From NCBI GenBank assembly GCA_026770705.1, contig JANJGN010000188.1, positions 620,001 to 684,000 on the forward strand: 64,000 nucleotides of DNA, written 5' to 3'. Position 1 is the first letter of the stretch, and each line of letters starts with the position of its first letter. Positions 1 through 54,059 of this stretch are shown here, piece after piece. The translations under genes were made by a program, and so were the position numbers. The notes under the pieces were generated by a model that worked only from the letters and a program-made list of their open reading frames with translations, ran no database searches and was not told where the DNA came from. Source of the stretch: Isurus oxyrinchus (lineage: Eukaryota).

Positions 1-971
1 GGCGCTGAGTCCGAGGTTCCCGGTCAGCGGGAATAGGTTTGGGCTGATCTTACCTATTCAGAGTTACAAAAAAAATGTATCGAATCCCTTCTGCAATCGT
101 GGGGAAGGACCTCGGTAAAGCAACAGTCAGTGAGTTAAATGTAGGCACTGAGTTGCTTCGGGAATTGAAGAGGGTTAGGAGTGAGTTCCAGAGGCAAACA
201 GAGGTACAAAGAAAGAGAACGGAAAGATTGGCGAGGAGGAAGAGAAAGGACTATGAATGGCGTTCACCATCTTTCAATTTTTACTCAATGAAACATCAAA
301 AGAGAAAAATAATCTCTGTGCCAAGGAGCTGCTGATAGTGCAGAGAGCAGTAAATAGGGCTGGATTTAGGAGAATCATCGTGTTCACTGAGGGAGAGGCA
401 ATGGGATTAGAAGCATAAAATTACGAGGGGGCCAGGGATGAAAGGCAGGATCCTGAATAGCTGCTGTCCGAAACCAAAGGAAATAAAGGGAAAACATAAA
501 TTTTCAAGATGAACAAAATGGTGGCAGAGATTACAATGTAAATTACTGTGTGATGTTACAGTCACGCTTTACAAGATGCGCGTTTAATGTCAATTATTAA
601 TGAATTCTGCTTCGTTAGTCATTACTAAATCGCGTGTGGCCGGTTCCTCTTGGTTTGAAAATACCTTCTTTCAGCGAGCTGTCCTAGTTTCAAGGTACCA
701 ATTCACTGATTTCACGGAAATTCCGATTTAGCCCTGTTTAAATGATAGAGCCAGCATCGGTGTTCGGACACATACGGAACTGTCGGCTGACTTGGTGTGA
801 AGGGCCGTTCCTGTCAAGGAACTCCCATATTCCGGATCTCTGAAAACAGCCGCGTTTCCTGAATCTCCCTGTCGCTGATACGACATATTTATCTGCACTG
901 TCTCCTACATCTGAATTTAAAAGTACATTTCCAATTTCGTGTGTTTTCTACTTTAAAGATAATAAAAAGCA

Positions 972-1043
972 CTCCTCGTCGGGGAATTGAACCCCGGTCT
1001 CCCGCGTGACAGGCGGGGATACTAACCACTATACTAACAAGGA
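972..1043 (-). tRNA. tRNA-Asp(GTC), apparently intact
   Basis: Reverse complement TCCTTGTTAGTATAGTGGTTAGTATCCCCGCCTGTCACGCGGGAGACCGGGGTTCAATTCCCCGACGAGGAG, 72 nt, near-identical to vertebrate tRNA-Asp. All stems pair, A and B boxes are intact, and a TTTTT Pol III terminator follows 3 nt downstream. Confidence 0.95.
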
Positions 1044-1613
1044 GTTACCTGACTTTATTATAGACAGGCCTGGGGCTAACTTTACACAGTAACAGAAGAA
1101 AATGCTGAATGTGGGAATGGAGAGGTTGCGGGCTTCATTCAGTTTTTTCAGAGACTTGAAGGATGACCGGATATCTTATCTGATTGAACTCGCTGTTCTT
1201 TACTCGTTATTAGGAACCTTATGATGCGTAATAACCCACAAATTGATAGATTTGTTGAATGAAAGAAATTGAATTGTCCTCCGATTAGCACGTTCATATC
1301 GTGAAAGATTCCTCTGTTGTGTAGTGTCTCGATTTAACAATGGGGAAATCTGACCGCCAGTGACAGTCTAGGAGAGTTCGGAGACAATGAAATGTCATCA
1401 ATTCAGGTTATCTGTTTTGTGGCAAATCCTGTCAAAATAACACTTCTTCTGACCCCAATTTGGGACTTTTTAAACGGATAGTGATTTATTTTTTCCTCTT
1501 GACTCATTTCCCGACCAGGAACACAATGAGGGAAAAATACCCAAATGTTAAAATGGAAGGTGAATATATAGATGTTCACCCTGCAGTGACTGGGAGATTC
1601 CCACTCTCATTGT

Positions 1614-1729
1614 AAAACAAAAACAGAATTACCTGGAAAAACTCAGCAGGTCTGGCAGACCTGCTGAGTTTTTCCAGGTAATTCTGTTTTTGTTTTGGAT
1701 TTCCAGCATCCGCAGTTTTTTGTTTTTAT
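1614..1729. mobile_element. Penelope-like terminal-repeat fragment collapsed into a perfect palindrome (41-bp arms, 1-nt spacer)
   Basis: 1614-1654 is the exact reverse complement of 1656-1696. It is followed by the GATTTCCAGCATCCGCAG tail shared with other Penelope-like fragments in the window. Confidence 0.75.
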
Positions 1730-1862
1730 CCCAGTCTTATTGTGTCCAACCTCCTGCTGGGCCGCCGTCTTGCATTTGTGCAGCAGCTGTTTATTATTCA
1801 GTTGAGCTCTGTCTCTCCCGTCACGGGTTCACCATCCTGTCGATGGTGCTGTCTCATGAACT
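1726..1862 (-). pseudogene. BEN-domain gene relic, last exon
   Basis: Translates (E)FMRQHHRQDGEPVTGETELN*IINSCCTNARRRPSRRLDTIRLG*. NSCCTNARR resembles the BEN C-terminal motif (NACC1-type DMCTNARR). There is an in-frame TGA at 1798-1800, and the acceptor reads cgg instead of cag. Confidence 0.75.
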
Positions 1863-2019
1863 CCGAGAAGGTTAAAATCACAAGAGAGACGCTCTTTTAC
1901 TGAAACATTTGGTCCCAGACCGAGTGTTTAGTTCACCATCCAACAGCTCCTGGGAATTACATGCAATACATTAACTTTTTTTTATAAATGCCTGGCTACT
2001 GGTTGATATGTGCACTCAC

Positions 2020-2245
2020 CGTTGACTGTCTCAATGACCTTTAAGGGTAAAGTCTTCCTCCCGTCTGCTGTAGAAGCTGTGCCCCTGCAGCTTGAATTCA
2101 GAAGGATATCACTAGTGAAGAGTGCATGCACCAGGCGGCTTATAACCAGATTTCTCTTTTCTAAATATTTCAGAGTCTCCAATTTTTCCGGTGCAACAAA
2201 AAATGTTTGACGATGTTGCACTTTCACTTTCTCTTGACCAGGTTT
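2020..2245 (-). pseudogene. BEN-domain gene relic, BEN core exon
   Basis: tttcag acceptor and gtgagt donor (phase 0/1). Open frame KPGQEKVKVQHRQTFFVAPEKLETLKYLEKRNLVISRLVHALFTSDILLNSSCRGTASTADGRKTLPLKVIETVN matches the BEN pattern RLLxxxFxxxxLxNSxxxG...RKxL. Confidence 0.78.
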
Positions 2246-2372
2246 CTGAAAGTTAGGGAATTAATTTGAGATCCTGATAGCATGATGGCTGCAAATGCGT
2301 GTTGCTGCTAAAACACGATAGGATGTGAAAACTACACAATGTGCTTTCATGTCCTGAGTGAATTGTACTTGC

Positions 2373-2450
2373 CTCAAATCTTCATTCCCACTCCCATTCT
2401 TCAATCCTGCCTCCAGGAGGTATTCTTTGTGTGAAAATGCGGCTCTGCAT
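2373..2450 (-). pseudogene. Candidate small internal exon of the BEN gene
   Basis: catag acceptor and gcaagt donor, 78 nt, phase 0-0, compatible with the flanking exons. Translates MQSRIFTQRIPPGGRIEEWEWE*RFE. Confidence 0.35.
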
Positions 2451-2734
2451 CTATGTAATTTCGGCATTAATAGGTGGTTGATTGGCAGTTACCCCCTGAG
2501 GTCGGCATAATGCTGGGAATAACTGCTGGTCGCTTTGAAAAATATTATTAAAAATGTTTCAGTCATGGACATTGAACCATCGTAAAGAACGAGTCAAAGC
2601 GTGTTCGCTGCGATTTCTCATTCAATTTCCTAACTTGGTGACAAGAATCACTCAAAGCGTCGAGGCTGAACTAGGCAGGCCACTATATGCCTGACAGAGT
2701 GATAGAGCAAGGACTTTCTTCATTCTCTCCAATG

Positions 2735-3030
2735 TAACATCCCTGACAAGGCCAGCACCCCAATCCCTTGAGAATGGTTAAGTGTCAACCACATTACTGC
2801 AGACCAGGCTGGGCAAGGACAGAAGATTTCCATCCGCATTGGACATTTATGAACATGCTTTTTTTTACAACAACCGACGATACTCTAATGTTGGCCAACA
2901 TTATTTAAATTGGTTTTATATCCCAGAATGTCTCAACTGATTTGAAATTCGATCAGCTGCCATAGTTGGATTTGAACTTATGTCCCCTGAGCATTAGCCT
3001 CTCTGGATTACTAATCCAGTGCCGTCACCA
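2735..3030 (-). mobile_element. tRNA-derived SINE (shark type)
   Basis: tRNA-like head (CACTGGATTAGTAATCCAGAG...GTTCAAATCC on the minus strand) and a tail resembling the 3' end of the LINEs at 9050 and 32420. Confidence 0.7.
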
Positions 3031-3547
3031 GAGAACAAGGCCAGTCAATTGATGCAGGTACCATTGTCTCTGATCCATTGCTTGTGAGCATATTCTTGGC
3101 AAAATCAAGGGTGAGAACATAATGTGATCTCTCAGTTTGACCTAAATTCACATATTGTTGGGAGGGTTCCACAAGCACTCACTGACTTTTCATCTTCACG
3201 CCTGCTGTCAATTACCACTGGGACCAAAGGAACCAAAAATCTCCCGCATGAGCTTTCCAGGATTCACAGCTTCAATGGAAAGGGGAAAGTCGCTGGTTGC
3301 TTTATCTTGCTCTCCAGAGGAATCCAAGGGCTATAGATTCAGAAGCTGTGGAGGGGGCAGAAGGGCGGGGGCCACGTGGTGATGATCCACGTGAATTTCA
3401 TTACATTCAATTGCAGGATCTCTATTCACACAACTCTGATTTCAGGTGCCTCAAACAATTCATCATAATATGCAGGGACCTGGCAATCACTGACTGTAGA
3501 GGAAGCTGCTGATTTGTGGAGTGCAGCATGGAACAGGGAATTCTTAC

Positions 3548-4330
3548 CCAGCTTGTCACAGAGAGGATATCAAGTGCCTTGGTCCAGCTGTTCAACTGAG
3601 GCCGCGGTCTATGGTACTCTGCACACAGGATACCATTCCCCTGCCTCTGGGCTTGCATTTCAGCCTGTCATACTCGCTGTCTGACCACTGATATTTATGG
3701 AGATGGATAAAGTGATGTTCGATCTGCGATGCTGGACTGTGCATGTGCATTACCCACCCATGTAAGTTCAGCTGTTACCAAAGGAAGCTTAGCAGAATGT
3801 GACTTTGAAAGCAGCTGGTGAGGGGCTCTGATTGGCCTGATGTGGCTGTTGTCATTATGACTGGGAATAAACGTTGAGACTCAGCCTCATGCTGCCATCC
3901 GTCCTTCCCTCTGCCTGCCTCACTTGGCTCCTTTCCACTGTCACTGTACAGAGTGGCAGTTTTCACCAATGCTGACCACTGCTCGGTGCCACTGGTGCAG
4001 GTTCACACCGTCCTGTTGGTAGGTCGTTCCTCCTCTTGGTCATCCTCCAGCTTGGCCATTAACCCTGCACACTTCTGTCGGCTAGTCTACAAACTAGGCC
4101 CAGGTGAATGACGCTACTTTCCCTTTTTTCTGTGCTGAGCCACCCTCATTGCCATGGAGTCCAGCGGCAGGAGGGTGCACACTGCCCTTGGTCTACACTA
4201 TTTCCACCTTCTGTGTGCTCGCTCCTGCAGCACGGTCAGCAGCAGTGCCCAGCTGCAGATCAACAGGTTGCTGAGCGGTCCTCAGCTCCTTCTTTAACTC
4301 TCCAAGAGTAATATTTGAATGTCTCAGAAA
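3548..4330 (-). pseudogene. BEN gene relic, large internal exon (low complexity plus coiled coil), copy A
   Basis: Paralogous to the long frame at 15585-16340. Ends ...MQAQRQGNGILCAEYHRPRPQLNSWTKALDILSVTSW followed by a gtaaga donor at 3547. Contains several stops and frameshifts. Confidence 0.5.
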
Positions 4331-4508
4331 TCAGTCAATTCACAATGAATAGGATTGAATAAAAGGGTTCTTTGTTTATTGCAGCTATTAATATCTGCCT
4401 CTGTAACAGTACAATGATCATTGTTTGTGCTGCACTCTGACAACAAGAACCTAAATAATTTACATGAGTTCACTATTGCAGGCGGTCAAGTTGATCCTCT
4501 GAGCAGAG

Positions 4509-4920
4509 ATGGCTCATACCAAACAGATAGCCTGGAAGTCCACCAGCGGCAACGCGCCCAGCAAGCAGCTGGCCTCCAGGGCAGCTCAGAAATATGCTCC
4601 GTCCACTGGCGAAGTGAAGAGATCTCGTCGCTACAGGCTGGGTACAGTCGCACTCTGAGAAATCTGCCGATGCCAGAATTCCATATAGAGTTGTTTATCT
4701 GCAAAGTGTCCTTCCAGCGCCTGGTGAGGGAAATTGCCCAGGGCTTCGAAACTGACCTGAGGTTTCAGAGTGTGCCATTTGGAGCATTGCAGGAAGCCAG
4801 TGAGGCCTACTTGGTTGGCCTGTTAGAGGACACCAAGCTGTGTGCCATCCATATCAAAAGAGTGACCGTTATGCCCAAAGACACCCAGCTGGTACAACGG
4901 ATCCGGGGGAGCGTGCTTAA
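4509..4920 (+). pseudogene. Histone H3.3-type processed pseudogene
   Basis: [34 protein letters not shown]...[37 protein letters not shown]... with an in-frame stop and frameshifts. S31 and G90 are H3.3 signatures. It is intronless, has no 3' stem-loop, and is followed by AATAAA at 5128 and then an A-rich tract. Confidence 0.9.
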
Positions 4921-5366
4921 ACTCTTTGCTTTATTACATCACCTCCAGACTATTTTGAGGTGATATTCAAACATTTTCTAAAACATTATTGGACTGTAGG
5001 TTTGGCTTCTTGTGGACGCTGGGCCTTTATTTTGTATTTTTGTTAGTTTTGAGTATTGATCATGTCTTAAAGTGGAAATAGCGAAACATTTTGCAAACAT
5101 TCCTTTGAACTCTTGCTCAGGTTGGAAAATAAACTTTAGTATCTTTTTTAAAAAGTGAAATGGTCGTGTTTGACCTATACACTCCCATCTAAACGGGAGC
5201 ATTGAAGAAATTATTGTGCAGAGTGTTTTATTTTATGCAGTTTTCTGGCTAGTTTTGCACTCTACATTGTTCGCCATGACCCCAGGCCTATTTACTAACC
5301 TCGCTTTTCCCTGTCACTGCGGCCTACCCTATGTTGCACGAGGAGAAAATAAAGAACAAATGCTTC

Positions 5367-5589
5367 CACTTATTCTCAAAATTTTCCCCAAGACCTTTCC
5401 TCGCCCCTTCCATTTGACACAGAACGTCCCCCCTTCCTCTCGATCCTTCTTGTTGCTCATGGCAGACAGCGGCTCAATCCTGGTCAGCAGTTCTGCGCTC
5501 CAGAAAACCAGACATAAATTATGGGTCGCTGCAGCTTGCTCTGCCGGGGATGCTGAGTCCTTGGCAGCAATAAGGTCACTGATGTCCAG
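5367..5589 (-). pseudogene. BEN gene relic, putative first coding exon, copy A
   Basis: LDISDLIAAKDSASPAEQAAATHNLCLVFWSAELLTRIEPLSAMSNKKDREEGGTFCVKWKGRGKVLGKILRIS. The peptide is recognisable in all three copies, and copy B retains the ATG and a GT donor. Confidence 0.55.
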
Positions 5590-6984
5590 ATGGCCAAAAG
5601 GCACGGTAATCACAGTGGACAATGCCTGATATGAACCTGCTGATGGACTGAGAATGGACAATGGTCAGAATGGCAGCATTGGTCAGAAAAGACTGAAAAT
5701 TAGGGGCGGGAAGCAAAAAGATCTGGGAACACGTTATGACAAGGATTGATGACTACACCAATCTAGAGTTTTGTTTGACCTCTATTGTACTGCAGATGTT
5801 TCTAGTCCATTTTCAAGTGGGTATAATTATTAAACCTCAAATGGACATTTTGTCCACTGTAAACTAACTTGAAGAAAACATCTCCCTATGTGCGGGGGTG
5901 GCACTGAGAAAGGATGGAAACTGAAACAATTCTCGAATAAAGCACGAGCGGCAGATGAAGAGACTTTTGTGGTTGAGATAAACATGTCGCGGGGATCATC
6001 TCCCAAATGTGCTGGAGGCTTTTCAGATCCCCTTGAGGCGATGGCTGGCCTGCGGTCATATTTTCTTTTCTCTCTATCCCGAAAGCAGGGAGTCCAATTT
6101 GTAGCCCAGGATGCACCATGCAGTCTGACTCAGCACAGGGCTGAGTGCTGCATTACGAGCGGCCTCATCATGTGGAGGAGGTTTCAAACTGCAGCAGCCA
6201 TGTGCCCCGTCTCCCTAAAGATCACATTCGGAGGATGAAGCAGAGAATTCTCTCACTGTAACAGCTCTTACACGCGGAAAGATTCTGTTAATGGGCCACT
6301 TATTTCAAAGAATATCCCAAAAAAAAATCAGGGTAGAAGTTTCAATCCAGTTCTTCCGCCCTCTCACCCGCCTCCCCCATTAAAAACAACACCAGTCTGG
6401 TCTCGCTTCCCTCCACCCACCCTCTATCACCATGCCATCCTGGCTCCACGTTCCCCATCTCCATGCATGCCTGACTCCTCAATTACCACCCCCGACCTCA
6501 CCTCTACTATGCCCCAATATCAGAATAATTGTTTGCATTCGCCACTCCTCGCTCTCTCGGGATCCACATGGTTCCGGCCTCTACCTCTACCCGTCACCTC
6601 TACCCGACTTAAAACGTTGTGGCCTCTCCCGGCTCGGGCCAAAGGCTCCAACCTCTCATATTCTCGGTCCCGCTCACTCCTGATTCACCTGGAACTTTTA
6701 CAATTACCGATAACAAGCAGAAAAAGGGCACCGAACAGCACAGGATGTGGAAATGCCCCTGGGAGCAGCAGGTACTGTGGGTGCGGCCTCTGGACCACAC
6801 AAAGGGTTTTTAATGTGCCCACCCTTGTGTGGCCGGGAGAGGCCGAGGCCAATCCTCTAATACTGACCGTCCCAGGTACAGGTTGCATTCCCACTTCCTG
6901 TCCCGGAGCAAGAGGGGATTAGACGATTGTTGGAGAACTAACAATGCGCGGGGTTGCGGGGAGAAGGCATTCACAACATTCTAA

Positions 6985-7250
6985 AAATGACAAATGAGAC
7001 TTGAACATGTGGCAAGGCTGTTAAGCAAGTACGACACAATTGTAGGTCGTAAACTAAGTTGTGAAGAGGGCGTAAGGATCTTGATATGTTACGTGATTGG
7101 ACAAAGATCTGGCAAATGGAGTAGAAAGTAATAAAACGTCAGCTTGTCCATTTTGTCAGCACGGACAAAAAAGAGGCACATAATCCAACCGGTGAGAGGT
7201 TGCAAAGCACTGAGATGCAAAGGAGTCTGGGTGTCCTAGTGCATGAAACT
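6985..7250 (+). mobile_element. CR1 LINE RT fragment (paralog at 18355-18610)
   Basis: Degenerate CR1 RT C-terminal region (TGGCAAATGGAGT = WQME, TGGGTGTCCTAGTGCATGAA = GVLVHE). Confidence 0.7.
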
Positions 7251-7821
7251 TTTGGTTTCCGTGTGCTGCTAAACTCTCATTGAAAATCGGACAGTCCAGA
7301 GTCCCAGGCGAGATCCTTCCTGTCTCTGAGACCAGAATGGTTGCTTTTGAAAAGTTCCCATTCGCTGAAAAAGCCTCAGTTTCGACTTAAACCGATTTTA
7401 TTGCTGCAGAGATCGCGCTGTCTCGCTCATTTGCTGACATGTTCTCTACTTTCCTACTGAAATCATAAAATCAACTAAATCTTTCCGTTTAACTCCCACT
7501 TCAGAGGTGAGTAAGTATTAATTATTGCCCGGTGCCAGCAAATTCGCTAGCCTCCTCAATCCTCCCATGTTTCTGCAGGATTGCTTTGTGAAAATGGGCT
7601 CGTAAAAAGCAAATGCCCTGTGGGGAATGGTCACAAATTGAGCTTCCTAAAAGGACAAGTCCAATTTTTTCATTCTTCTCTGAACTTTCCCCATCTCCAG
7701 TTCTTTTGTTCAGATGCTGATCAAAGTGAATTGTAGAAAATGTTGATTTCAGTTGCTGATTTGCAGCGGAAAACCACGCATGAGGTATTTAGTCCCATAC
7801 CGAACGCTGCTTGTTTGAGTC

Positions 7822-8095
7822 GGAGACTGAAAGATACAGAATCAATCACACACTCACAGCTAGTAGCAGAAATTGATATTTACCGAATCAATCTCAGACC
7901 CACCGATGGAAGCAAAGACTGATATTCATCGAATCAATCACACATTTGCAGATAGTGCCAGGGATTGCAATTGATAGAATCAATCCCACAATGACAGACA
8001 GTATCAGAGACTGATAGTCCCAGAATCAGTTCCACAATCACAGACAGTACCAGTGACTGTTATTTATAGAATCCATCCGCACTCACATGCATAGA
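7822..8095. repeat. Degenerate ~46-bp minisatellite, ~6 units
   Basis: Units approximate AGAGACTGATATTTATAGAATCAATCCCACAATCACAGATAGTACC. A paralogous array lies at 19960-20170. Confidence 0.85.
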
Positions 8096-8731
8096 AAAAC
8101 ATTGCAGGGTTACGGGGAGTGGCAGTGGGTGAATTGTTCCTTTAGAGGGCCTGCACATATTAGATGGCCCAAATAGCCTCTTTCAGATTTGTCGCCATTC
8201 TATGATTCTAATGGAAAATACTGGAAAAACTGCGTAGCTCTGGCAGTATCGATGCTTCGATAGCGGGTCTAATTGTTAAAACTTCTATCAAGGTGAAATG
8301 TGAAACCCCATATCCTGTCTCCAGAGATGCTGCAGGACCTGCTGAGTTTTTCCAGCACCTTCTGTTATTATTTCAGATTCCCAGCGTGAGCAGTCTGTCA
8401 CTTTATGAACAATAAAACAATCCCTGTGCAGGAATCGGTATTCAAATAAGATATTGGAAGCAGCAGATGGAAAATATTCAGAGAATCGCTGAATGTTACA
8501 AATCCGAGTAATTCTATCCCGGCTCCACACTACAGCTCAGGAAAAGCCTTTATTATCATCAAGAAGGAATATATCTGAGCTACATTTTAAATGGAAGATA
8601 AATGGAGGTGGGAAGTAATTATATTTCTATTAAACCCGCCCATGTGTTCGAAGCAAAATTTCATTGAAACGAATCAAATTCAGCTTCATGCTTGGGGTTT
8701 CCGATTTGAGAGGTTAAAAAAAACAAGAAAT

Positions 8732-8804
8732 TGCGGCTGCTGGTAATCGAACTGGGGGTCAAATACTTGGAAAGCAGCTACGCTCACCACTGTATCACCA
8801 TCGA
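8732..8804 (-). pseudogene. tRNA-Gly(TCC) pseudogene
   Basis: Reverse complement TCGATGGTGATACAGTGGTGAGCGTAGCTGCTTTCCAAGTATTTGACCCCCAGTTCGATTACCAGCAGCCGCA aligns to vertebrate Gly-TCC with broken stems. Confidence 0.85.
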
Positions 8805-8849
8805 TAAATACTGATATTGGCACATAGCCATAAGTCACAAAAGTCTTAA

Positions 8850-9040
8850 CAAGAGGGTTATAATGACAAATAAAGCAAAAATGATGCTGAGCCACAGAAG
8901 GAGATATTAGATCAGATGACAAAAGCTTGGTCAAAGGGGAACATCTTAAAGATCAGAAGGAGCTGTAGAAGTGGAGTAGTTTAGGGAGGGAATGCAGAAT
9001 TTTAGACCAGATCGGCATTAAGCACGGTTGTCAATTTGTA
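8850..9040 (-). mobile_element. L2-like LINE 3' fragment
   Basis: AAAAGCTTGGTCAAAG...TTTAGGGAGGGAAT...CAGA pattern, typical of L2 3' ends read on the opposite strand. Confidence 0.5.
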
Positions 9041-9049
9041 GAGAATAAA

Positions 9050-10175
9050 ATCCCATCTCTAGTTTCCCTTGAGAAAATGCTGCCGAATTGCCTTGTCCAT
9101 TCCACGTGGTGTATGTACACCCACAGTTCCATTAGCGGTGGGGTGAGGGGGGTGGTGGGGGAGGGGGGTTTCTAGGGTATTGATCCAGAGGTAGTGAAGG
9201 AACAGCGATATGTTTCCATGTCAGAATGGTGTGTGGGTTGGAGGAGAACTCTCAAGTAGCGGTGTCCCCGTGCATCTGCTGCCCTTGTCCTTCTAGATGG
9301 TAGTGTTCGTGGGTTTGGAATTTGTTGTCCAAGGAGTCTTGGTGAGTTCCTACAGTGCATCGTCTGGGTGAAGAACACTTCTGTTACTATACTCTCGTGG
9401 TGGAGGGATGTTGGGTGGATAGGGTGCCAGTCAAGCGGGTTATCTTCTCCTGGATGATGTCAAGCTTCTGGAGGTTTGTTGCTGCACTCATCCAGGCCAA
9501 TTGAGAGTATTCAAACATGCTCTTGACTTGTGTCTTGTAGATGGTAGACAGTCTTTGTGAGTCATGAGGTGAGTTACTCGCCGCAGGGTTCCTCGCCTCT
9601 AACCTGTCTTGCAGCCATTGCATTTGTATTGCTACTCCAGTTCAGTTTCTGGTCAATGGTATCCCAGGATTTTGATAATGAGAGATTCAGTAATGATAAT
9701 GCCATTAGACTCAAGGAGCAATGGTTAGATTCTCCCGTGTTTGAGGTGGTCATTGCCTGGCGTTTGTGTGGCACGAATGTTACTTGCCACTTGTCAACGG
9801 AAGCCTGGAAATTGTCCACGTCTTGATACATTTGCACATGGACTGCTTCAGTGTGTGAGGATTTGCGAATGGTGCTGAACATTGTGCCATCATCAGTAAA
9901 CATCAGCACTTCTGAACTTAAGATGAATTGAACGTCATTGATGAAGCATCTGAAGATGTTTAGGCCGAGGTCTCTATCCTGAGGAACTCCTGCAGTGATG
10001 TCCTGTAACTCAGCTGATTGACCTCCAACAACAACTTACATTTGTGATAGTATGACCCCAAGCATCGGAATGTTTTGTCTCTGCTTCCCATTAACTCCAG
10101 TTGTGCTCGGGAACCATGACGTTGCACTCGGACAAAAACTTCCTTGATGTCGACGTTAGCCAAGCTCATCACACC
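9050..10175 (-). mobile_element. CR1/L2-group LINE, 3' part of RT ORF2
   Basis: Minus-strand frames MFTDDGTMFSTIR...DKWQVTFVPHK and LSTIYKTQVKSMFEYSQLAWMSAA (FADD-like motif). Same family as 32420-33575. Confidence 0.85.
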
Positions 10176-10735
10176 TGTAAAGGGGAAAGTACTGAAGACA
10201 GACATAATGAAGAAGGGAAAAAAATATCTCCATAAATCAAGGCAGTTGGAAACATTGAATCCCTGAAAAGAAAAAGAAAAAGAAAAATTGTGCAGGGATC
10301 ACGGAAGGTGGGGAAATGATAGTAGAATAATTTCTCCTTCAAAGAACGAGCACAGACACGATGGGCCAAATAATCCATTCTATGCTTATAAGAATCTGGG
10401 ATTAGGAAACTTGAACTTCAAATGTAATTTACTGAACCCCGGAATCACAATGGTGAATCAGCATTGCTTCCAATCCAAGTTAGATATAACACCAGTGTTT
10501 CCTCTGTGTGGTGTCTGCAAGAACATGAGAAATAGGTGCAAGAGTATAATGTGTCTTCCAGCTTCTCAAACCTTCCACAACTTCCTGGAGTAATATCCGC
10601 CTTAATTTACCTTCCTGCAAATTCTCAATTCTCGCTGCCACCCAGCCGCTTAGCAGATGAAGAATTCCCAATGTGTTTGTAGCAAAATAGTAGAATATGG
10701 TTCAAAATATTGCAGCCTGGTGTTGTTCATAACTT

Positions 10736-10808
10736 TGTGCTGTGGTTTGGTGCATGATATCTTGTATCAGTAATGCAGGTGATCCTGAGTTCTAATTTCA
10801 ATGGCGTT
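10736..10808 (+). pseudogene. tRNA-Thr(AGT)-like pseudogene, highly degenerate
   Basis: TGTGCTGTGGTTTGG...TCAGTAATGCAGGTGATCCTGAGTTCTAATTTCAATGGCG versus Thr-AGT ...CTAGTAAACAGGAGATCCTGGGTTCGAATCCCAGCGGTG. A T-run follows, and a paralog lies at 46009. Confidence 0.6.
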
Positions 10809-11719: not shown

Positions 11720-12205
11720 AAGGATGTTGGAAGGAGGGCAGAAAATGTTCACGAGAATGTTTCCTAGGATGAGGAGCTTCAGTTGTGAGGATAGATTGGA
11801 GAAGTTAGGACTGATTCCCTGGGAGAAAGGAAGGTTGAGAGAAGATTTGCTAGAGGGATTGAGCATCACGAAAGGTCTGGAGAGGTTGGAGGGGAAGCAA
11901 GTGTTCCCATCCGTGAAATGATCAAGTTCGAACTAGCACAGTTGTTTAAAAAAAACAAAAGAGACACGACGAAAAAAAACCACATTTCTTTCTCGTGGAA
12001 AGTGGTTAAGTTCTCGAATGCACCACCTGACAGTGTGGTGAAGGTAGGTTCAAGGGAATCATAAAGAGCGGAGTGAGACTGCTATCTCGAAATGAAGACC
12101 GCCAATACTGGGAGAAGGCGGGGAACGGCACTAAGTGAATTGCTCATTCAGACACGATTGATCGAATGACCTTCTCCTGTGTTGTAATATTTCCAAACCT
12201 TTGTG
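11720..12205 (+). mobile_element. CR1 LINE 3' end (paralog 46985-47505)
   Basis: QKMFTRMFPRMRSFSCEDRLEKLGLIPWEKGRLREDL is the CR1 ORF2 C-terminus, and a CR1 3' tail follows. Confidence 0.9.
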
Positions 12206-12209
12206 ATTG

Positions 12210-19900: not shown

Positions 19901-19959
19901 CAGCAGAAAACTGCACATGAGTTACTTAGTGCAACCCGAACGCTGATTGTTCGTGAGTC

Positions 19960-43030: not shown

Positions 43031-43563
43031 CATCATTCCGGTTCTCCCAGGCGGTGGTTCCATATGTTACTATCCTGAACTACCAAACCAGGCGTCCATC
43101 ATGCTCCCGGCTTAAGTTCCATTGCCATCGCCCCTGACATGAGGTTCAATCTCTCCTCGCACCATAACTGAGCAGATGAGGCCATCCCAAGTAGCTCGGA
43201 GGGACAGCATAGTTTTATATGTAAAAGTCCGTTTAAGGAAACATTGAATTTGTTCTATAAATTGAACATTTTTGACAGTCAATAAAATAATGGAGTTACT
43301 TACATAACTCCACATAGATACTTCATTGCAGTATTCAGCACTAAAACCATCCCACAAAAGGGCTTATGCCTTATGAAGACTTGTTATCGGTTACCCCCGT
43401 GGTCTCAGGATCAACAGATGGATGGCTTCATTTAGTTACTAGTTTTATGTGGAGGGAGCGAATCGCTGGAGGCGGAATCAGAGGACATCCTATATACTTT
43501 CCAAATCTTTACTGCAAAGATAGGTTTTTTTGAAAAGCCCTGCACAGGAATAGTACTCCTGTG

Positions 43564-43652
43564 CACAACCTGTGCACCATCCACGCCAAGCGAGTCACTA
43601 TCTTTCCCAAAGACATCCAGTTGGACGCCGCATCCGCGAGGAGCGAGTCTAA
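43564..43652 (+). pseudogene. Replication-dependent histone H3 3' fragment
   Basis: NLCTIHAKRVTIFPKDIQL/(frameshift)RRIREERV*, the H3 C-terminus. Confidence 0.85.
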
Positions 43653-43990: not shown

Positions 43991-45035
43991 ACCTGTCGGA
44001 ACCACACTTTCCCACTAGAAACAGAATATGAAATTGTTTCCCCATTCGCGAAATCAATCCCTGTCCCTTTGTACCTCTCACTGGAATTTCAGCAACGTAA
44101 TATCTCACCGAAATAAATGCAATCTTCAAAGCTTTGGAAGCCCGGTGCAGATCAATGTTCTCATTTTGCACTTTCATACAGCTCGTAACAGATGAACAAC
44201 AATGTTTGCAGGAAAGCAGTGGGATAAAATTCATAACTTTGCATTGTAAATCTTGGGTTGGAGTAGGCGTTGTGAATTAGTTGGTTAAAAAGCCTTTTGA
44301 ATACACATAAGATTCTGCGTTCAAATCTTAGACGTCCCTTTATCCGTTTTGTCGGTGCATGGTTTTGAATTAAACCAATGACGTTCGGGAACAGCATTGA
44401 GAATTAGCCGCCTATATAACGAAGCCGAATCGGACAATCGTTTCCTCGGGAGGTTCATGCAGAAGGATAATTTTGAAATATTGCCGGCGATAACGGTGAG
44501 CGAGTTTTGAATGATTTATGCAAAAGCGCGTTAGGCAGGAAAGAGCAGGAAAGGATAAGTGCTGGAGTTTCTTCGATAAAGGCCCTGGACTGACATGTCT
44601 ATTTCCACACCACACTTTGTGATTCGCTCAATTTGGAACGTTGCTCCGAATGAGCTTTGATGTTTTCCATGCGATGGTGTCATACTTTCCCACAACAAAC
44701 ACCCCATGAAATTGTTTAACTAACTGCAAAATCCATCTCCGTGTCTTTTTAGCTTCCCACTACAATTATACCTTCCAGGATTCTTCGTAATATTCAAAAC
44801 TTTAAAGGCCCAGTGCAGATACCTGGGTATTAACAGCTGTCACATCTCACGCCACTGGTCAGGAGCGAGTAGTTGGTGCAATTTAGAAGATTTGTGAAAT
44901 GACACCAAAGGGAGGCTGCCGGTCTGTCTGTGAGGAAAATGCTCTGCATCGAGTGAATCCACAAATAAGGAAACACATAAAAAGTTTGACTTGTTTCTTG
45001 TTAATGAAGATGAATATCGGGAAAGGCAGAGTGAA

Positions 45036-45096
45036 GTCTGTGTTGCTCAGTCGGTAGAGCATCTGAGGGTCCAGGTTTCAAGTCCCTGTCTAGCCG
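45036..45096 (+). pseudogene. tRNA-Lys(TTT) pseudogene with a 12-nt deletion in the anticodon arm
   Basis: GTCTGTGTTGCTCAGTCGGTAGAGCATC|TGAGGGTCCAGGTTTCAAGTCCCTGTCTAGCCG equals Lys-TTT minus AGACTTTTAATC. Confidence 0.9.
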
Positions 45097-46008
45097 CTGC
45101 CAATTGACAAAAGGTGCTCGCTACACATGAAACGGCAAAAAAACCAACAATGGTACCTGAATTTTTCAAGGAGAACTGAAGAAATGGAGACGTTTCCTTG
45201 ATGTGCAAGAAAAGATCCATCCCTTCGAAATTGTGGTAGCATCGGTCAATTTTAAGAATTGTTCCAGATATTCCAAGTGTAGAAAGTGCTCCTTGATTTC
45301 CTCTTGTTTGGCACTATCGCTCTAGGCCTGTGCCAGGAATAAATGTTAAAATTCAGCCCGGTTCCTGCCGCCGGGGGAACGGCTTCTCCGTGTTTAACCT
45401 AACAATTGATTTTAACAGGTTAGAAACTTCGATCAAATCACAAAGATAAAATCAAACTACTGCAGATGCGGGAAATCTGACACAAAAACAGATGCTGGAT
45501 CAGACCACACTTCATTCTTTAATAATCAAGAGAATAGAAAACAGTTAATCCCTGAAAATTAAAAACAACGTGCAAGGAGCGGGGAAAAGGCGGGGGATTG
45601 ATTGTCGGCCAGCAGAGAAAGGATGGACCAAATGACTCCTCTTCTTCTGTACCCAATGTATGATTCTTCGAATCTAGGATTATGAAACTTGACCTCTAAA
45701 TGCAAACTACTGAACTCTGGAATCCCACTGGTGAATCAATGCCGCTTCCACTCCAAGGTCAATGTATTCCTCAATGTGTCTGGTGTCTGTAAGAAAATGA
45801 CAACAGCGGCAGGTGTGTCATGGGTTTCCGGATTCTCAAACATTCAAGGATCTCCTGATTGAATATCCACCTCAAGTCCCCACTCCTGAAAATTCTCATT
45901 TCACACTGCCTTACAGCCCTGTAGCAGGTGAACAATGTGCAATGAGTTTGCTGCCAAACAGTGGAATGCGCTTCAAAACATCGCTGCCTCGTGTTGCTTG
46001 GAATTATT

Positions 46009-46081
46009 TTGCCTTTGGTTAGTGGGTGATATCTTAGATCTAGTAATGGAGGCGATCCTGTGTTTGAATCTCAAAGGCACT
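46009..46081 (+). pseudogene. tRNA-Thr(AGT)-like pseudogene
   Basis: ...GGTTAGTGGGTG...TCTAGTAATGGAGGCGATCCTGTGTTTGAATCTCAAAGGCAC followed by a T-run. Confidence 0.65.
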
Positions 46082-46984
46082 TTTACTTATTTCAAACTCA
46101 TCAGGCAAAGCGCTGCGCATTTTTGAGTAGGTGGAGAGCGTTTAGAATGACGTGTGAATATAAATGAGCACAACAGGATCGAAATTTCCTTTGCAGCAAA
46201 CGTGCACCGTTGTCTTTATGTATCCCTCCCTCTTCAGTTCAACCGAATGAACCAATGGGTTTGTTGAGTTACGTGAATGAAAACTGCTTTGGGGTTAGTG
46301 CAGAAGCTTTGCAGGAAATCCCATTTTCTTTTCTTCTTTGATCTGGAACGCCGCACACAATATCATAAAGAGCATCATTAGGGATCAATCTCCGAAAAAC
46401 TCGAGGGATTTGAGAAGTAATTCTGGCAAAAACCAAGGCTTTAAAGACATCTCGATCAACCACAATGCATTTCAATGAATTTTGTTCTCCGCTTTCAATC
46501 CACATGGAAACTGTTCTCGACATGAATCTCACTGAAACAGAGGGTGACCGTGTGGTATCTGCCAACCTGTAGGTGATGCGCTTTGGGACACTGCAGGACG
46601 CTCTCCTGGGACTGACACAGGACCCCAGGGGAGGATTGCTGCAACGCTTGGGACACATTGACAACTTTTTCTTTTATTGCTTTGTGGATGTGAGAATCGC
46701 TGGTAAGGCCATCATTTATTTGTGGAGCCTCTTTCTCCAGTTAGTGTTAAGTTGACCACTACCATTCAGGACTGCAGGTGACAGGATTACAGAGCTTAAA
46801 CCTGACCCGTTGGTTATGGGATTAATTCGAAAGCGATTCTCTGTGAGGACAGGAAACCGAAGTTTCATGGCACAAAAACCAAAGGGTGCTGTCATTGGAA
46901 TAAGATAAACAAGATTTGTAGAAGGCACTTGTTCAGCCTCAGCTGGTGCATCCCGTCTGGTTCTGGCCGCTGCTGTTGAGAAAG

Positions 46985-47505
46985 GATGGGAAGATGTGAA
47001 GGGTGTTGGAAAGAGGGCAGAAAATATTCACGAGAGTGTTTCCTGAGATGAGGAAATTCGGTTATCAAGTTAGATTGGAAAATTAGGACTATTTTCCTGA
47101 GAGAAAAAAAAGGCTGAGTGGAGACTTGATGGGGGAATTGAAAATCACGAGGGATCTGGACAGATTGGATGTGAAGAAAATGTTCCCATTTCTGAAAGGA
47201 TCAAGTTGGAGCTGGTGCAGATTTAAAGTAGTTGTTTAAAAAATGCAATAGTGACACGAGAAAAAAAAAAGATCCTTTATCGCAGAAAGTGGTTAAGGTC
47301 TGGAATGCAACACCTCAGAGTGTGGCGGAGCAGGTTCAAGAGAAACATTCAAACCAGAGTTAGACTGTTATCTGGAAAGGAGGAACGTTCATCCGGGAAG
47401 AAGGCAGGGAATGGCACAAGGTGAATCACTCATTCGGAGAGATGGTACAGACAAAATGGGTCGAATGACCCCCTCCTACGCTGTAACATTTCTGAGTTTC
47501 TGTGA
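46985..47505 (+). mobile_element. CR1 LINE 3' end (paralog of 11720-12205)
   Basis: Collinear with the copy B insertion. Confidence 0.85.
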
Positions 47506-47509
47506 TTCT

Positions 47510-47750
47510 GTGAGTATAATAAGGAAAGAAAAGATGTGCCCAGATGAGGTTGTGAATAGCAGCACAGCAACCGCCCGAAGGTAACATGGGGAATAAAGAT
47601 AGAAACGTGACAAACCAAACTGGCCAGAAGAAAAAAAATACCCACTGGAAACAACATGGAGACAGATGTTAGGGTTAAATTCGCTGAACGCAATGTTGAG
47701 GCCAGAAGGCTGCAGTTGGAAGATGAGGTGTTCTCCTTGGAATTTTGCTG
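47510..47750 (-). mobile_element. Penelope-like GIY-YIG 3' fragment
   Basis: EHLIFQLQPSGLNIAFSEF. Confidence 0.75.
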
Positions 47751-48299
47751 TTGTTGCCGCCATTTAGTCCCGAAAACACGTTCTGTGACGTTGTGCTTGA
47801 TTGGAGAAGAGCTGCATATGCTTGGCTTTGGCTCATATTCTCTCCTACCCTTTAATAAAACTCGACGAATATCAGATTGAAAATGCAACAATTGATCAAG
47901 CATTAGTTTCCGTGTACAAAGGGAGCTTTGAAGTTCCAAACTCTTTCTGTGTAGAACTGTTTCTCAATTTCCATTCTGGCTTTAGATTTTTGACTGTGGC
48001 CCTTAGTCCGAGATTCCTAGGAAACAGAAGTAGGTTCCGGCTCCGATGTTATGTTTCCCTTGGCATCCGGAATTCTTGGATCAAATCAGTGCATGAATCA
48101 CGAGGGAGGCAGGGACAGTCAGTGCCTTCCAGGGGCTGAGCTCTGTTTTACTGTCTGGAATTGAGGAGCATGAGTAGGGAGTTCAAGAAGCAAACCGTGT
48201 TGCAGATCAACAAAGTTGAATGATTGGCGATAAGCGAGAGAGAGGAATATGAATGCCATTCAGGAAATCTTTTCCAAAATGCCTTCAGATAGAAAAGGA

Positions 48300-48775
48300 A
48301 AGCAGTACAGAAACTGGAAAACCGAAAGAAAAAAAAACAGAACATTCTGGAAACATTCAGCAGCTCATAGATCTTGTCTGGAGATGAAATGGGAACTGTT
48401 CAGGTCGATAACATTTTATCAAAATGGAAGAAAGATGTGAATATAACAGGGCTTAAAGCAGTGGAGTGTGGGAATAGGTGGGATGTACATAAGAACATTT
48501 CAATGAGGATATAGGGCATGGGGAAAGGTTTCATGGTGACAAAAATATATAATGACTGTAGGAAGTAAAGCAAAAAAAACAGGTGTCCATATAAGTTTGT
48601 GAATGGCCACCTAGCAAAAGTCCGAATGTAACATGAAGGAATAAAGAAAGAAACGTGACCAAACAATGTTGAAGCAGATGTTCTGATCAAAAATTGTTGA
48701 ACTGAGTGTTCAGTCCTGAAGGATCTATCCTACCCTGTTGAGTGACCAGGGGCAGTTCCTAGAGCTTTGCTGTTG
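48300..48775 (-). mobile_element. Penelope-like 3' fragment with terminal repeat
   Basis: Paralog of 13020-13480. GLNTQFNNF on the minus strand. Confidence 0.7.
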
Positions 48776-49960
48776 CAGAGAGCCTTTAATCGCTGGAGCA
48801 TGTTCTGTTTTTCTGAGATCCTGGTTGTTTGGTGACTACCTCCATATGTACATTTTTCTCTTATATTCCTTTAAGACCACTTTTAAAGAAAACTCTTTGA
48901 ATCTCAGATTTAAAATAAAGCAATGCGTTAAACATTAATTACCGTAATCAGAAGCTCCAGCGTCATTTGTGTGTAGAATTATTTTCTAATTCCCCTGTTA
49001 AAATCTCTGGCTTTAATTCTTTGACTGTGACCTGGGACCTTGATTCCCAGTCAGCAGCCGTAGTTTATCGGCCGATCTTATCCGTTCAACGCTACAAACA
49101 AAATATCAAATCCCCCCTGCAATCATGAGGAAGGAGTTCGGTAAAGGGACAGTCAATGGGATAAATGTAGGGACTGAGTTGTTGTTTGGTGTCGGGAATT
49201 GAAGACAGTTAGGAGGGAGTTCAAGAGACAGTGTTACAGAGGAAGAAAACTGAAAGATTGGCGAGGGGCAAGAGCGAGGGATATGAATGACGTTCAGCAT
49301 CTTTCAAATGTTGCTCAATGAAAGACAGAAGGAGAAATTAATCTCTGAGCCAAGGAGCTGCTGATCCGTGCAGTGACCATAAAATAGAATTGAAATTTGC
49401 AGAATCATGGTTTTTACTCAGGGAGAGGTAATGGGACGAGCAAATAAATAAAAGATGGAGGATAGTTGGCAGGATATTAAATAGCTGACGTCCGGAAACA
49501 AGAATACAAGGGGGAAAGTAAATTTTAAAATCCGTGAAAAATGATAGCAGAAATTAGAATGTAAGTCACTATGTCATGTTACTGCCACCCTTTTAAAGAT
49601 GCACTTTTGCCATTGGATTATTAATGAATTCTGGCTCGTTACTCATTACTAAATTCAGCATGGCCGGTTCCTCTCGCTTTCATAGTGTCTTGTTTCAGCA
49701 AACTGCTCTTGGTTGAAGCTACCGAATCACCGATTTTCCGATTCAAGCCAGTTTAGGTGAAAAAAACCGTTTTTTATGCTAAAACACACACAGGAACGTC
49801 GTCCAACTATTGCCATACAGTTTCTCACACTCACACACCTCTGAAAACAACCGCTGTTCCTTTACTTGCACGAAATGTCTACTTTATATCAACCAATTTC
49901 CAATTCTAAAGCCGATTCAAATTTTGTGTGCTTCCTTTGTGTTAATTTGTAATAAAATGC

Positions 49961-50032
49961 CTCCCCGTCGGTGAGTTCAACCCCTACCTCCCGCGTGACA
50001 GACGGCGTTACTGACCACTATAGTAACGAGGA
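49961..50032 (-). pseudogene. tRNA-Asp(GTC) pseudogene
   Basis: Reverse complement TCCTCGTTACTATAGTGGTCAGTAACGCCGTCTGTCACGCGGGAGGTAGGGGTTGAACTCACCGACGGGGAG. The B box and stems are broken. Paralog of 972-1043. Confidence 0.9.
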
Positions 50033-52700
50033 ATAAACATAAATTGTTCGAAGTAAAGGAACCTGGGGTTAGTTTCACACTTTAACAAATGAAATCGAAG
50101 AGTTGGTCTAATGTGGGGCTGCAGGGTGTGCCTTCAGTGATCCCAGAGAGAAGGATGGCAGGATAAGCTCTCTAAATGAAGTCACCATGTCTCAATTCCA
50201 ATCTGGGTTTTATGAAACGAAAACAGAACATGCTGGCAAAACTAAGCGTCTCTGACAGTAGCTATAGTGAAAAAGGTAAAGTTAACTTTTCGAGTCCATA
50301 GAGTCATATGGACCTGAAACGTGAACTCTGCCTTTGTCTCCACAGATGCTGTCAGAGGTGCTGCGTTTATCCAGCATTTTTTGTTTTTGTTTCAGATTTC
50401 CAGCATCCACAATATTTTACCTTTAGCTGGACTTAATGATGCTTAATAACTCACAGATTGACAGAATTACTGAACAATACAAATTGAATTGTCGCATGCT
50501 CAGTACAGTTATATCCTGAAGAATTCCTTGTGAGTATCGTGGTTCCATTTCTCAATGAGAACCTGCGGCCGACAGTGAGACCTGCGCATGTAATACTCAC
50601 ATCATATTTCCAGGAAAGTTGCCAATTTCGGCGATCACCAGACTTCCGATCTTATTTATTAATTTCAATGTATTTATATCATGATTTTTGTTTGTCAAAG
50701 CTTTCCCGCCACTGACTGGTTTGTAATAGGCAGGTTGATTTTCTTCCCTTTTTTGAATATGGATGGAACATTTGCAATCCTCCAGTCCTCTGGCACCAAT
50801 GGATGACTCTGTCTCTCTCTCTCTCTCTCTCACCACATTGCTACCACTACTTCCTCTTCTCCCATATATTTTCATAATAGCAGTTTGCATTTTTATATAT
50901 ACTTGATTGTTTTTACACAGAACGATAATTATTCTCGTTTTGGTGAGTCAGATTTATGAGAACACACTCTACAATATTGATACGATCAATAATTACTTAT
51001 TATAATTATGTACATGAATATTGCTTACAGTATTCCAAATATGATTAAATCTGAGGTCGATGCCTGTGGCACAAGGGAGTTGAAAACATGTGTATGGTGA
51101 GCTGTTGATGAGCTCCAGTCCATTGTTTGTTGTAGAAACTGTTTGTTGGAATTTCACTCTGGCTAGAATTGATTAGATGATTAGATTACACATGATTGAT
51201 TAGATTACTAATCCATTGGTATTGCAAGACAGAGAAAGAGAGATGCTATCCAATTGGCATAAGACGGGTTCTCTCTGATCCACTGCCTGTGAGCATGTTC
51301 ACAGGAAAGTCGAGGGCGAGGGCTTAATGCGACCTGTCGGTGAGATCTGATTTCATGTAATGGAGAGAGAGTTCCACAAGTACTCACCCACTTTTCATCT
51401 TCAGGCCTGCTGTCAGTGCCCCCTAAGAGAGCAACAATGCACGGCATGAACTGCAGCTTTCCAGGAATCACAGTTTCAGTGGGGAGATGAAAGTCACAGG
51501 TTACATTCTCTGCCTAACCAGAGGAATCCAAAGGCTATAGATGCAGCAGGCATGAGATGGATGGTGGATGCGGAGGTGGCGGGGATGATCTACATACATT
51601 GCATGACATCCAATTGCAGAACCTGCACCAGGTTTAGGGGTGGCGAATTCAAAATTCACACAACACCGGTTCAGGTGTCTCAGACAACACATCATAATGT
51701 TTCAGGGACACAGCAACCACACACTGTAGTGTTGTGCCCTAGTCCAAATGTTAAATTTGAGCCGCAATCTCTTGTTCTCTGCACGCAGAACACCATTCTC
51801 CAACCTTAGGCCTTCCAATTCACCCAGAGTCTCTCATAGGCCAGAGTGTGCATGTCTACCGAAAAACACCCGGGTGTCTCACCCCTGGTATTTACGGAGA
51901 TGGGTAAAGTGGTGTTGGATCTGTGATGTTGGCCCATCCATGTCCATTTCCAACCCATGTAGGTTCAGCTGCTGCCAAATGAAGCTCAACCATATGTGGC
52001 TGTGAATGCAGCTGCTGAGGGGCTCTGTGTCTCATTGGCCTCATGTGTGACTGTTTTCATTCTGACTGAAGGTGCAATGATAAGCCTAATCCTCACGTTC
52101 CCTTGCCACCAACTCTCTGGCTGTCTCACCTGGCTCCTTTCAGCTGTCACTGTGCACACTGTCCATTTTCAGGAAAGCTGACTGCCGCTCGGTGCCACTG
52201 CTGGAGGTTGATACAATCCTGATGCAAGGTAGTTGTAGCTCCTCCTCCTCATCCTCCATCTTGTCCACTATCCCTGCACACAGCAGCCGGCTAGTCTCCA
52301 AACTAGGCCCAGGCGAATGACAGTATTTGATTTTTCTTTTCTGTGATGAGCCACAACCATTGCCATGTAGTCAAGCAGCAGGAGGCTGCACACAGCCCTT
52401 GGTCTTCAATTGATTCATCATCTGTACGCTCGTTCAGCTGCATATTAGCAGTGTGCTGGGGGGGGATCTTCAACTCGATCCTTAACTCTGTAAGAGTGAC
52501 ATTGGAATGCCTGAGAAATCAGTCAATTCACAATGAAGATGATTGACTGGAAGGATTCTTTGTTCATCGCTTATCGCAGCTTTTATTATCTGCCTCAGTA
52601 ACAGTGCAATGATCATTGCTTTAGCAGCGCTCGCAGACAAGAGCATAAAACATGATCTGAGTTCACTATTGCAGGCAGACAAGTCCATCCTTTAACGGAG

Positions 52701-53110
52701 ATGGCTCATACCAAACACGTGGCCCATAAATTCTCTGGTGGCAAAGCGCCCAAGAAGCAGCTGGCCACCAAGGCAGCCTGGAAATGTGCCCCCTCCACTG
52801 ACAAAGTGAAGAAACCTCATTGCTACAGGCCGGGTACAGTTGCACTCCAAGAAATCCACCGATGCCAGTATTCCACAGAGTTGGTTATCCGTAAACTGTA
52901 CTTCCAGCGTCTGATGAGGGAATTTGCCCAGGGCTTCGAAACTGACCTGAGGTTTCAGAGTGATGCAATTGGAGCTTGGCAGGAAGACAGTGAGGCCTAC
53001 TTGGTTGGCCTGTTTAAGGAGACTAACCTGTTGCATCCATGTCAAAAAAGGTGTCCGTAATGCCCACAGACACCCAGCTGGCACGACGGATTCCAGGGGA
53101 ATGTTATTCA
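52701..53110 (+). pseudogene. Histone H3.3-type processed pseudogene, copy C
   Basis: [49 protein letters not shown]...[21 protein letters not shown] with a late frameshift. S31 and AIG are H3.3 signatures. AATAAA at 53301 and A-rich tail at 53321-53340. Confidence 0.92.
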
Positions 53111-53560
53111 TTATGTTTTCTCCAGACGATTTTGAAGTGACATTTAAACAATTTCTAAAGCATGGACTGTAATCTTGGCTTTTTGTGGCGGCTGGGCCTT
53201 TATTTGATTTCGTTGTTGGTGTTGAGTATGATCATGTCCTAATGTGGAAACAGCAAAACAATTTGCAAACATTCCTTCGAGGTCTTGGCTCAGTTTGAAA
53301 AATAAAACATGTGAATCTTTAAAAAATAATAAAAGAAAAATGCCGACTTTGACGTATACACTCAGGTCTAAACGGACATGTCGAAGAAACAATTGTGCAG
53401 TGTGATTTCGTTAAACAGTTTTCTGGCCAGTTATACACTCTACGATGGTTGGCATGACCCCAGGCTTATTCAATAATATACCTTTTCCCTGTCAAATGCG
53501 TTCAACTTCAGTGCGGCCTTCCCTATGTTACAGTCGGAGAAAGTAAAGAACAAAACTTGC

Positions 53561-53782
53561 AACTTCGTCTCCAACTTTTCCCCAAGAACTTCACTGGTCC
53601 TCCCATTTTACGTGGCCCGTCCCCCATTCCTCTCTATCCTTCTGGTCGCTCACGGCAAGCAGCGGCTCAACCCTGTTCAGCATCTGTGCGATGCAGAAAA
53701 CCAGGCACAACCTTTGAGTCGCTGCGGCTGGATCTGCCGTGGTTACCGAGTGCTCAGCACCAATATGGTCACTGATGTCCAC
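53561..53782 (-). pseudogene. BEN gene relic, first coding exon, copy C
   Basis: VDISDHIGAEHSVTTADPAAATQRLCLVFCIAQMLNRVEPLLAVSDQKDREEWGTGHVKW..., then a gcaagt donor. Confidence 0.5.
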
Positions 53783-54059
53783 ATGGCTGATAGGGAAATT
53801 AATAATAGTGGACAAAGCCTGATAAGAACCTGCTGAGGGAGTGAGATTGTCAATGGTCAGAATCGCAGCAATGGTCATAAAAGACCGAAAATTAGTGGCC
53901 GGATGTTAAAAGATCTGGGAAGACTTTATGACAAGAATTGGTGTGACTATACCGTTTTGTATGATCTCTATTGGAATGCAGATGTTTCGAGACCATTTTC
54001 AACTGTGTTTAAATATTAAACTTCAAGACACTTTCCTCTATAAACTAAGTTGAACATAC

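Follow-up and report, generated by a model that had tools for sequence, protein, structure and literature searches.

Relics of an EnSpm/CACTA transposon with a BEN-domain gene in a duplicated, tRNA-rich region of the Isurus oxyrinchus genome

We analyzed a 64,000-nucleotide stretch of the Isurus oxyrinchus genome (assembly GCA_026770705.1, contig JANJGN010000188.1, positions 620,001 to 684,000 of the forward strand; hereafter the window). A preliminary description of it had reported a repeating unit of transfer RNA (tRNA) genes, a BEN-domain gene and a histone H3.3 gene, and had left two explanations side by side, tandem segmental duplication and a very large mobile element carrying these genes as cargo. 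We found that the region is real but mostly ordinary duplicated DNA, which holds relics of an EnSpm/CACTA transposon family with a BEN-domain gene as its second gene. The unit combines tRNA-gene DNA, an EnSpm/CACTA relic that has lost its ends and a disrupted retrocopy of H3.3; segmental duplication in several tiers very probably spread it passively. Self-BLAST recovered the three diverged, collinear copies and the partial copy of the preliminary description, all in the same orientation: copy A (17-8907), copy B (10329-20977), copy C (44003-54054) and partial copy D (33682-35318). The identity among A, B and C is 70-76% in long pieces and up to 82% in short ones; the three short pieces of D show 67-76%.

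Sequence comparison identifies positions 1358-6370 of copy A as a truncated EnSpm/CACTA transposon, the BEN gene (minus strand) being its second gene. Both inverted ends and the transposase are missing, and the relic is interrupted by the H3.3 sequence. Corresponding relics on the minus strand lie in copy B (15046-17705) and in copy C (51201-54054), the latter containing H3.3. A dispersed copy on C10 (the window contig itself being C188 in our searches of the 4.98-Gb genome) is collinear with window 1425-6270 at 65-73% identity and lacks H3.3. Because 1358-6370 is a truncated transposon, the BEN gene is the transposon's own accessory gene and not captured host cargo; the preliminary description, which had not noticed the transposon, had considered it as possible cargo. 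A sharp boundary at 1358, seen in nine copies, was considered as an element end and rejected, since it represents a 132-bp deletion private to copy A.

The assignment to EnSpm/CACTA is based on dispersed relatives of the relic. Six solo BEN-exon matches are located on five large chromosomes (C7, C10, C11, C15 and C23), with 42-63% protein identity. The solos on C15 and C23 share approximately 500 further bases downstream of BEN, a stretch that ends sharply in the dispersed family. The family ends themselves are sharp and form an imperfect inverted match of approximately 21 bp that starts with 5'-CCCTAC, so that terminal inverted repeats (TIRs) are present. Ends of the CCC type occur in some animal EnSpm families, for which we found no printed account. 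The right terminus was located downstream of BEN in four of the six solos and the left terminus upstream of BEN in those on C11, C7 and C23. Target-site duplications (TSDs) were measured on sister elements, because no BEN-bearing solo retained both termini intact. Seventeen elements had both ends in one locus, and eight of the 12 that could be scored showed a 2-bp TSD (p 4e-7; mismatched-pair rate 0.076). Three other superfamilies were rejected: Harbinger, since a 3-bp TSD was seen in none of the 12 elements; piggyBac, in view of the missing TTAA; and Helitron, given the inverted ends and the TSD. A DNA search with the C10 solo returned matches swamped by a short interspersed element. As a separate observation, two BEN solos on C23 (45.69 and 45.81 Mb) are approximately 124 kb apart and 93% identical, and they probably represent one local duplication instead of two insertions.

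Between the left end and BEN, the C11 solo carries a broken transposase that is 43% identical to the protein P0005 (E 4e-45), which itself contains the Pfam domain PF02992 above the cut-off (45.8 bits). The C(2)C and H(3)H motifs are both found in the C11 relic when it is aligned to P0004-P0006. Three other transposase relics matched PF02992 with E-values of 4e-5 to 4e-6, below the Pfam cut-off. The C23 solo contains an N-terminal part of the transposase in the same head-to-head layout with BEN as on C11, and the transposase loci on C3 and at C10:161 Mb carry window-homologous DNA upstream. Transposase and window-homologous DNA are thus joined at four loci (C11, C23, C3 and C10:161 Mb). Genome-wide we found 30 such transposase matches, of which C20, C17 and the small contigs of the arrays carry none. 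In maize, the protein TnpA serves the transposon as a DNA-binding helper; by analogy, the BEN protein was probably the DNA-binding helper of this element.

The array copies look different from these solos. We scanned 794 kb of array DNA, of which 240 kb surround the related C20 block and another 240 kb the C17 block, and detected neither a family terminus nor an EnSpm transposase. Array copies keep aligning with each other past both ends of the relic, towards the tRNA-Asp gene at one end and a C-rich repeat at the other, whereas the solos diverge there. Since the array copies have no ends or transposase and share the same flanks, they fit one truncated insertion beside a tRNA-Asp gene. In a 48-row tree, from which the C11 solo was dropped by the length filter, two solos stand on one side of a branch (99/95) and 46 array copies on the other. 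These data are consistent with a single founding insertion behind the array copies.

The BEN domain of the window gene was confirmed indirectly, through two linked matches. The exon at 2020-2260 (minus strand; the 5' end is approximate) has an open frame and a GT donor at 2019. It matches P0001, a basking-shark gene model encoding a spliced BEN domain, with an E-value of 2.3e-12, and P0001 in turn matches the BEN domain of NACC1 (E 3.3e-8) and falls with the BEN clusters in a protein atlas (score 0.93). The second BEN-domain exon (1740-1862, minus strand, frame taken from P0001) has a mutated splice acceptor and an in-frame stop in copy A. The claim of a BEN gene therefore held, although a first Pfam scan of 79 of the 100 window open reading frames (ORFs) of at least 90 amino acids and of 51 read-through frames returned no BEN, because the intron splits the domain. 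Pfam support for BEN is weak (E 0.09-0.12, below the cut-off), and Foldseek gave no significant match for P0001, with the NACC1 BEN domain at rank 3 (E 0.71) and a poor single-sequence fold (predicted local distance difference test score of 48). A genome search with PF10523 returned five matches, none within the arrays, and a homologue search with the ORF at 15588-16007 found nothing. The window scans yielded only histone, reverse transcriptase and seven-transmembrane (7TM) matches. They contained no transposase, integrase, recombinase or Helitron protein, in agreement with the preliminary description; beyond the window, only the EnSpm transposase was sought. Elsewhere in the genome, a 758-amino-acid single-exon frame with four BEN domains, which we take to be BEND3-like, is weakly similar to the transposon BEN (G000:C6:151.43 Mb).

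The histone component is a later addition. H3.3 is the best PDB match of the window histone (E 5e-47), so its identification as the H3.3 variant stood, while its proposed role as mobile cargo was not supported. Copies on the plus strand lie at 4475-5157 in copy A (frameshifted, with a polyA signal and the remnant of an A-rich tail) and at 52669-53337 in copy C (frameshifted). The parent H3.3 gene contains introns. Since the window sequence is intronless, carries the polyA signal and the A-rich remnant, and is missing from a clean, empty site in sister copies, it is a processed pseudogene that landed in the relic. The empty site is seen in copy B (at ~16495), the C17-B copy, the C20b copy and the C10 solo, and the insertion would be later than the founding of the array. 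A candidate 20-bp TSD around H3.3 was dropped after alignment. The window additionally contains a second, different histone H3 fragment (43510-43640, Pfam E 2e-4) and a match to the histone 3' stem-loop (57079-57124, 28.6 bits, below the gathering score). These suggest remnants of a replication-dependent histone cluster.

We compiled 16 features with shuffled controls across copies A-D. The parts listed in the preliminary description are real, but no window copy holds all of them; the cassette as described combines the contents of several incomplete copies, and none of the 16 features was detected in copy D. Within the window, copy A alone, which spans 1-9053 and begins before the window edge, has the BEN-domain exons and the 3' portion of the transposon relic. 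H3.3 and tRNA-Asp are found in copies A and C. Copy B lacks both as well as the BEN-domain exons. The tRNA-Gly relic and a 46-bp minisatellite (7824-8078 and 19959-20100) are shared by A and B, as is one CR1-type fragment (7071-7253, plus strand, and 18473-18580). Copies B and C have in common the tRNA-Thr relic, the other CR1-type fragment (11628-11939, plus strand, and 46907-47230) and a Penelope 3'-end fragment (12379-12456, minus strand, and 47677-47745). A tblastn comparison with ORFs of retrieved genomic loci confirmed the identity of the CR1 and Penelope fragments; they are indeed common to different copies, each to two only. The tRNA relic labelled Lys occurs in copy C alone. Copy C is truncated at 54054, and homology to a neighbouring copy extends upstream to 36600.

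Most of the tRNA sequences are decayed. The tRNA-Asp(GTC) gene of copy A (972-1043, minus strand) looks intact and is the only one in the window that passes both ARAGORN and Rfam (59.3 bits); its counterpart in copy C is a relic (49961-50032, minus strand). The tRNA-Gly relic (8730-8805, minus strand, and 20804-20873) owes its label to the collinear C17 copy, which ARAGORN calls as tRNA-Gly(TCC) at default stringency. These two identities of the preliminary description were upheld. The probable tRNA-Thr relic (10736-10809, plus strand, and 46013-46078) is labelled from low-stringency ARAGORN calls alone, a setting which produces many false calls and serves as a hint only. The relics of copy C scored 21.5 and 20.7 bits, the lower score (E 1.1) belonging to the sequence at 45036-45096 (plus strand). 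Its proposed Lys isotype is unreadable because the anticodon arm is deleted.

Genome-wide searches placed the window in a much larger duplicated patch. Scoring the best 40 of 258 candidates for the H3.3 region gave 25 matches at 94-100% identity, including the region itself, and 15 at 79-85%; the copy B segment fell into the same tiers, with 17 matches at 93-100%. For the BEN exon, at least 150 matches were scored among 220 candidates. They are distributed over 46 contigs, with 133 on 39 small contigs, ten on C20, one on C17 and the six solos. This answers in part the call for a genome-wide copy count: the count is one of BEN exons, and the unit copies cluster on C20, C17 and the small contigs. 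The ten C20 matches form a cluster of approximately 2 Mb (G000:C20:79.37-81.30 Mb), which is likely an anchored part of the arrays. The duplicated patch shows identity tiers of 70-80%, ~85% and 93-99%. On both C20 and C17, blocks of several units, tens of kb long, recur at ~85%; these blocks contain deletions and an inversion junction, and their breakpoints differ. Homology among C20, C17 and C188 is lost at numerous, differing positions; the junctions of the units vary from copy to copy, and individual modules, the tRNA-Gly segment among them, are found again next to other neighbours. The youngest tier agrees with the usual description of segmental duplications (>1 kb, >90% identity, shared internal insertions), while the older tiers lie below 90%. 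The identity tiers and the ragged, differing junctions support the duplication alternative of the preliminary description; no conserved TIR or TSD was found at the unit ends, the outer ends of the youngest blocks being unmapped.

Several observations weigh against our interpretation. None of the 12 TSD-scored elements carries BEN. The transposase relics reach 23-26.5 bits compared to a Pfam cut-off of 28.6, and searching the genome directly with PF02992 gave no match. The termini are of the CCC..GGG type and not of the CA..TG type usual for the clade (PMC12730594). The tree is unrooted, contains only two solos and has an unsettled bootstrap. The outer ends of the 93-99% blocks are unmapped, one long-query search having produced a single match, and haplotypes that the assembly left uncollapsed may account for some of the near-identical (98-99%) copies found on small contigs.

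The unmapped outer ends leave some room for the idea that the young blocks, tens to hundreds of kb in size, are a giant element with tRNA, BEN and H3.3 as cargo, possibly moved by an EnSpm transposase acting in trans on distant ends. Copies of 93-99% identity, approximately 0.5-1 Mb apart and in both orientations on single contigs, would fit such an element, as would the interstitial position of an ~85% block on a second large chromosome, C17. We nevertheless consider it highly improbable, as the 794 kb of array DNA contain neither terminus nor EnSpm transposase, homology among C20, C17 and C188 ends at many different points, and modules change their neighbours. Quite improbable, too, is that the BEN genes of the arrays have been domesticated as a functional multigene family, with selection on this core duplicon driving the expansion. 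The abundance of BEN exons, the absence of stops from the exon in 22 of 28 distinct copies, the spliced domain of the basking-shark model and a dN/dS (ratio of nonsynonymous to synonymous substitution rates) of 0.66, the lowest of six frames, speak in its favour. However, this dN/dS is within the range of non-coding controls (0.48-1.46), no codon periodicity was detected along the body, and stops and frameshifts pervade the upstream exons of copies A, B and C as well as those of the C47-type copies that were read. Moreover, the acceptor in A is mutated, and B and C have no BEN exons.

An explanation by uncollapsed haplotypes, according to which much of the recent copy number is redundant and the real family smaller, is unlikely in our view; it is compatible with passive duplication of a dead transposon. 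The concentration of 133 of the 150 BEN-exon matches on 39 small contigs and the 98-99% identity of some pairs point in this direction. Several contigs carry multiple copies in both orientations, however, and tiers of 70-88% cannot be allelic, so that redundancy would affect the count but not the mechanism. We regard a more far-reaching extension of our own interpretation as similarly doubtful. According to it, BEN is a TnpA-like helper of animal EnSpm/CACTA elements, and a cartilaginous-fish family of these captured a histone H2A sequence (at least 17 loci) and seeded the BEN array of >150 copies in tRNA clusters, some of which might be expressed as a domesticated chromatin-binding family.

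For the passive duplication of a dead transposon, the following order of events may be proposed. One EnSpm element would have inserted beside a tRNA-Asp gene and lost its ends and transposase, after which the CR1 and Penelope pieces and the H3.3 retrocopy would have been inserted. An old tandem duplication could then have given rise to the A, B and C types. In a final step, larger blocks would have undergone renewed duplication, inversion and dispersal, with unequal recombination as the most likely cause.

The same inverted ends, approximately 1.7-8.6 kb apart, also delimit a non-autonomous sister family, which carries a C-terminal H2A fragment beside a piece resembling a long interspersed element. 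The fragment (Pfam Histone_H2A_C, E 1e-6) was found in 17 of the 52 loci examined and partially in three more. The loci are distributed over C1, C2, C3, C4, C5, C6, C8, C9, C10, C15, C17, C19 and C21 (e.g. L225:745-975), and the elements show different 2-bp TSDs. Judged by these features, the sister family is a multicopy Pack-TIR-like family. Like animal Pack-TIRs (PMC8277862), it combines TIRs, a captured fragment of a host gene, multiple copies and differing TSDs; this likeness applies to the dispersed sister family and not to the window unit. Only four multicopy cases were reported in a survey of 100 animal genomes (Tan et al. 2021, PMC8277862), whose main text contains none of the terms shark, EnSpm and CMC. 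The H2A family is a multicopy vertebrate DNA transposon that carries a gene fragment, a class reported there as rare.

Compared to known EnSpm/CACTA (CMC/CMCT) elements, the dispersed family has a Transposase_21-like transposase, short inverted ends, a 2-bp TSD and an adjoining second gene. The termini of such elements are 5'-CA..TG-3' in most cases and the transposase carries C(2)C and H(3-4)H motifs (PMC12730594), and a zebrafish EnSpm insertion (ichabod) produced a 2-bp target duplication (PMC13189230). The family differs in its CCC..GGG instead of CAC..GTG termini (PMC12730594) and in having BEN as the second gene, and the window copies in having neither ends nor transposase. A pairing of BEN with EnSpm/CACTA was not found among the papers listed in the literature searches; Repbase and most subscription papers lay outside this search, and the family may already be named.

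Clustered tRNA and histone genes occur in sharks and rays, on zebrafish chromosome 4 and on human chromosome 6, according to a preprint (bioRxiv 10.1101/2025.06.08.657570). The window shares with the shark and ray clusters the clustered tRNA loci, the histone sequences and the tandem gene families. In contrast to those clusters as described there, its tRNAs are mostly relics, and its histone is an H3.3 retrocopy in a transposon fossil, not a clustered replication-dependent gene. Primate core-duplicon segmental duplications are likewise organized in nested tiers with mosaic modules, inversions and shared old insertions. In the window region there is no evidence of a selected, expressed core gene, and the shared core is a dead transposon. 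Giant cargo elements such as Teratorn, Maverick/Polinton and Starship are comparable in size range and mixed cargo, whereas the window unit yielded neither conserved ends nor target duplications nor genes for mobilisation.

The analysis sets the giant-element explanation aside and supplies a history that can be dated for the expansion of the large, tRNA-rich duplicated regions in cartilaginous fishes. In addition, the direct connection between a BEN-domain gene and the transposase and termini of an EnSpm element provides a route by which transposon-borne BEN genes might seed host gene families.

Further genes were observed in the neighbourhood. The window contains an open 315-amino-acid frame of rhodopsin-type 7TM character (62963-63907, minus strand) and a broken paralogue (24946-25859, minus strand), presumably GPR139/142-like; similar frames recur in the C188, C20 and C17 blocks. 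Two long ORFs beside the C17 block (G000:C17 ~88.33 Mb, L054:6995-8755) are, we assume, NACHT/NLR-like. Outside the unit, two overlapping long non-LTR (long terminal repeat) reverse transcriptase ORFs are located at 58441-59800 on the minus strand, one of which matches RVT_1 with an E-value of 1.6e-12.

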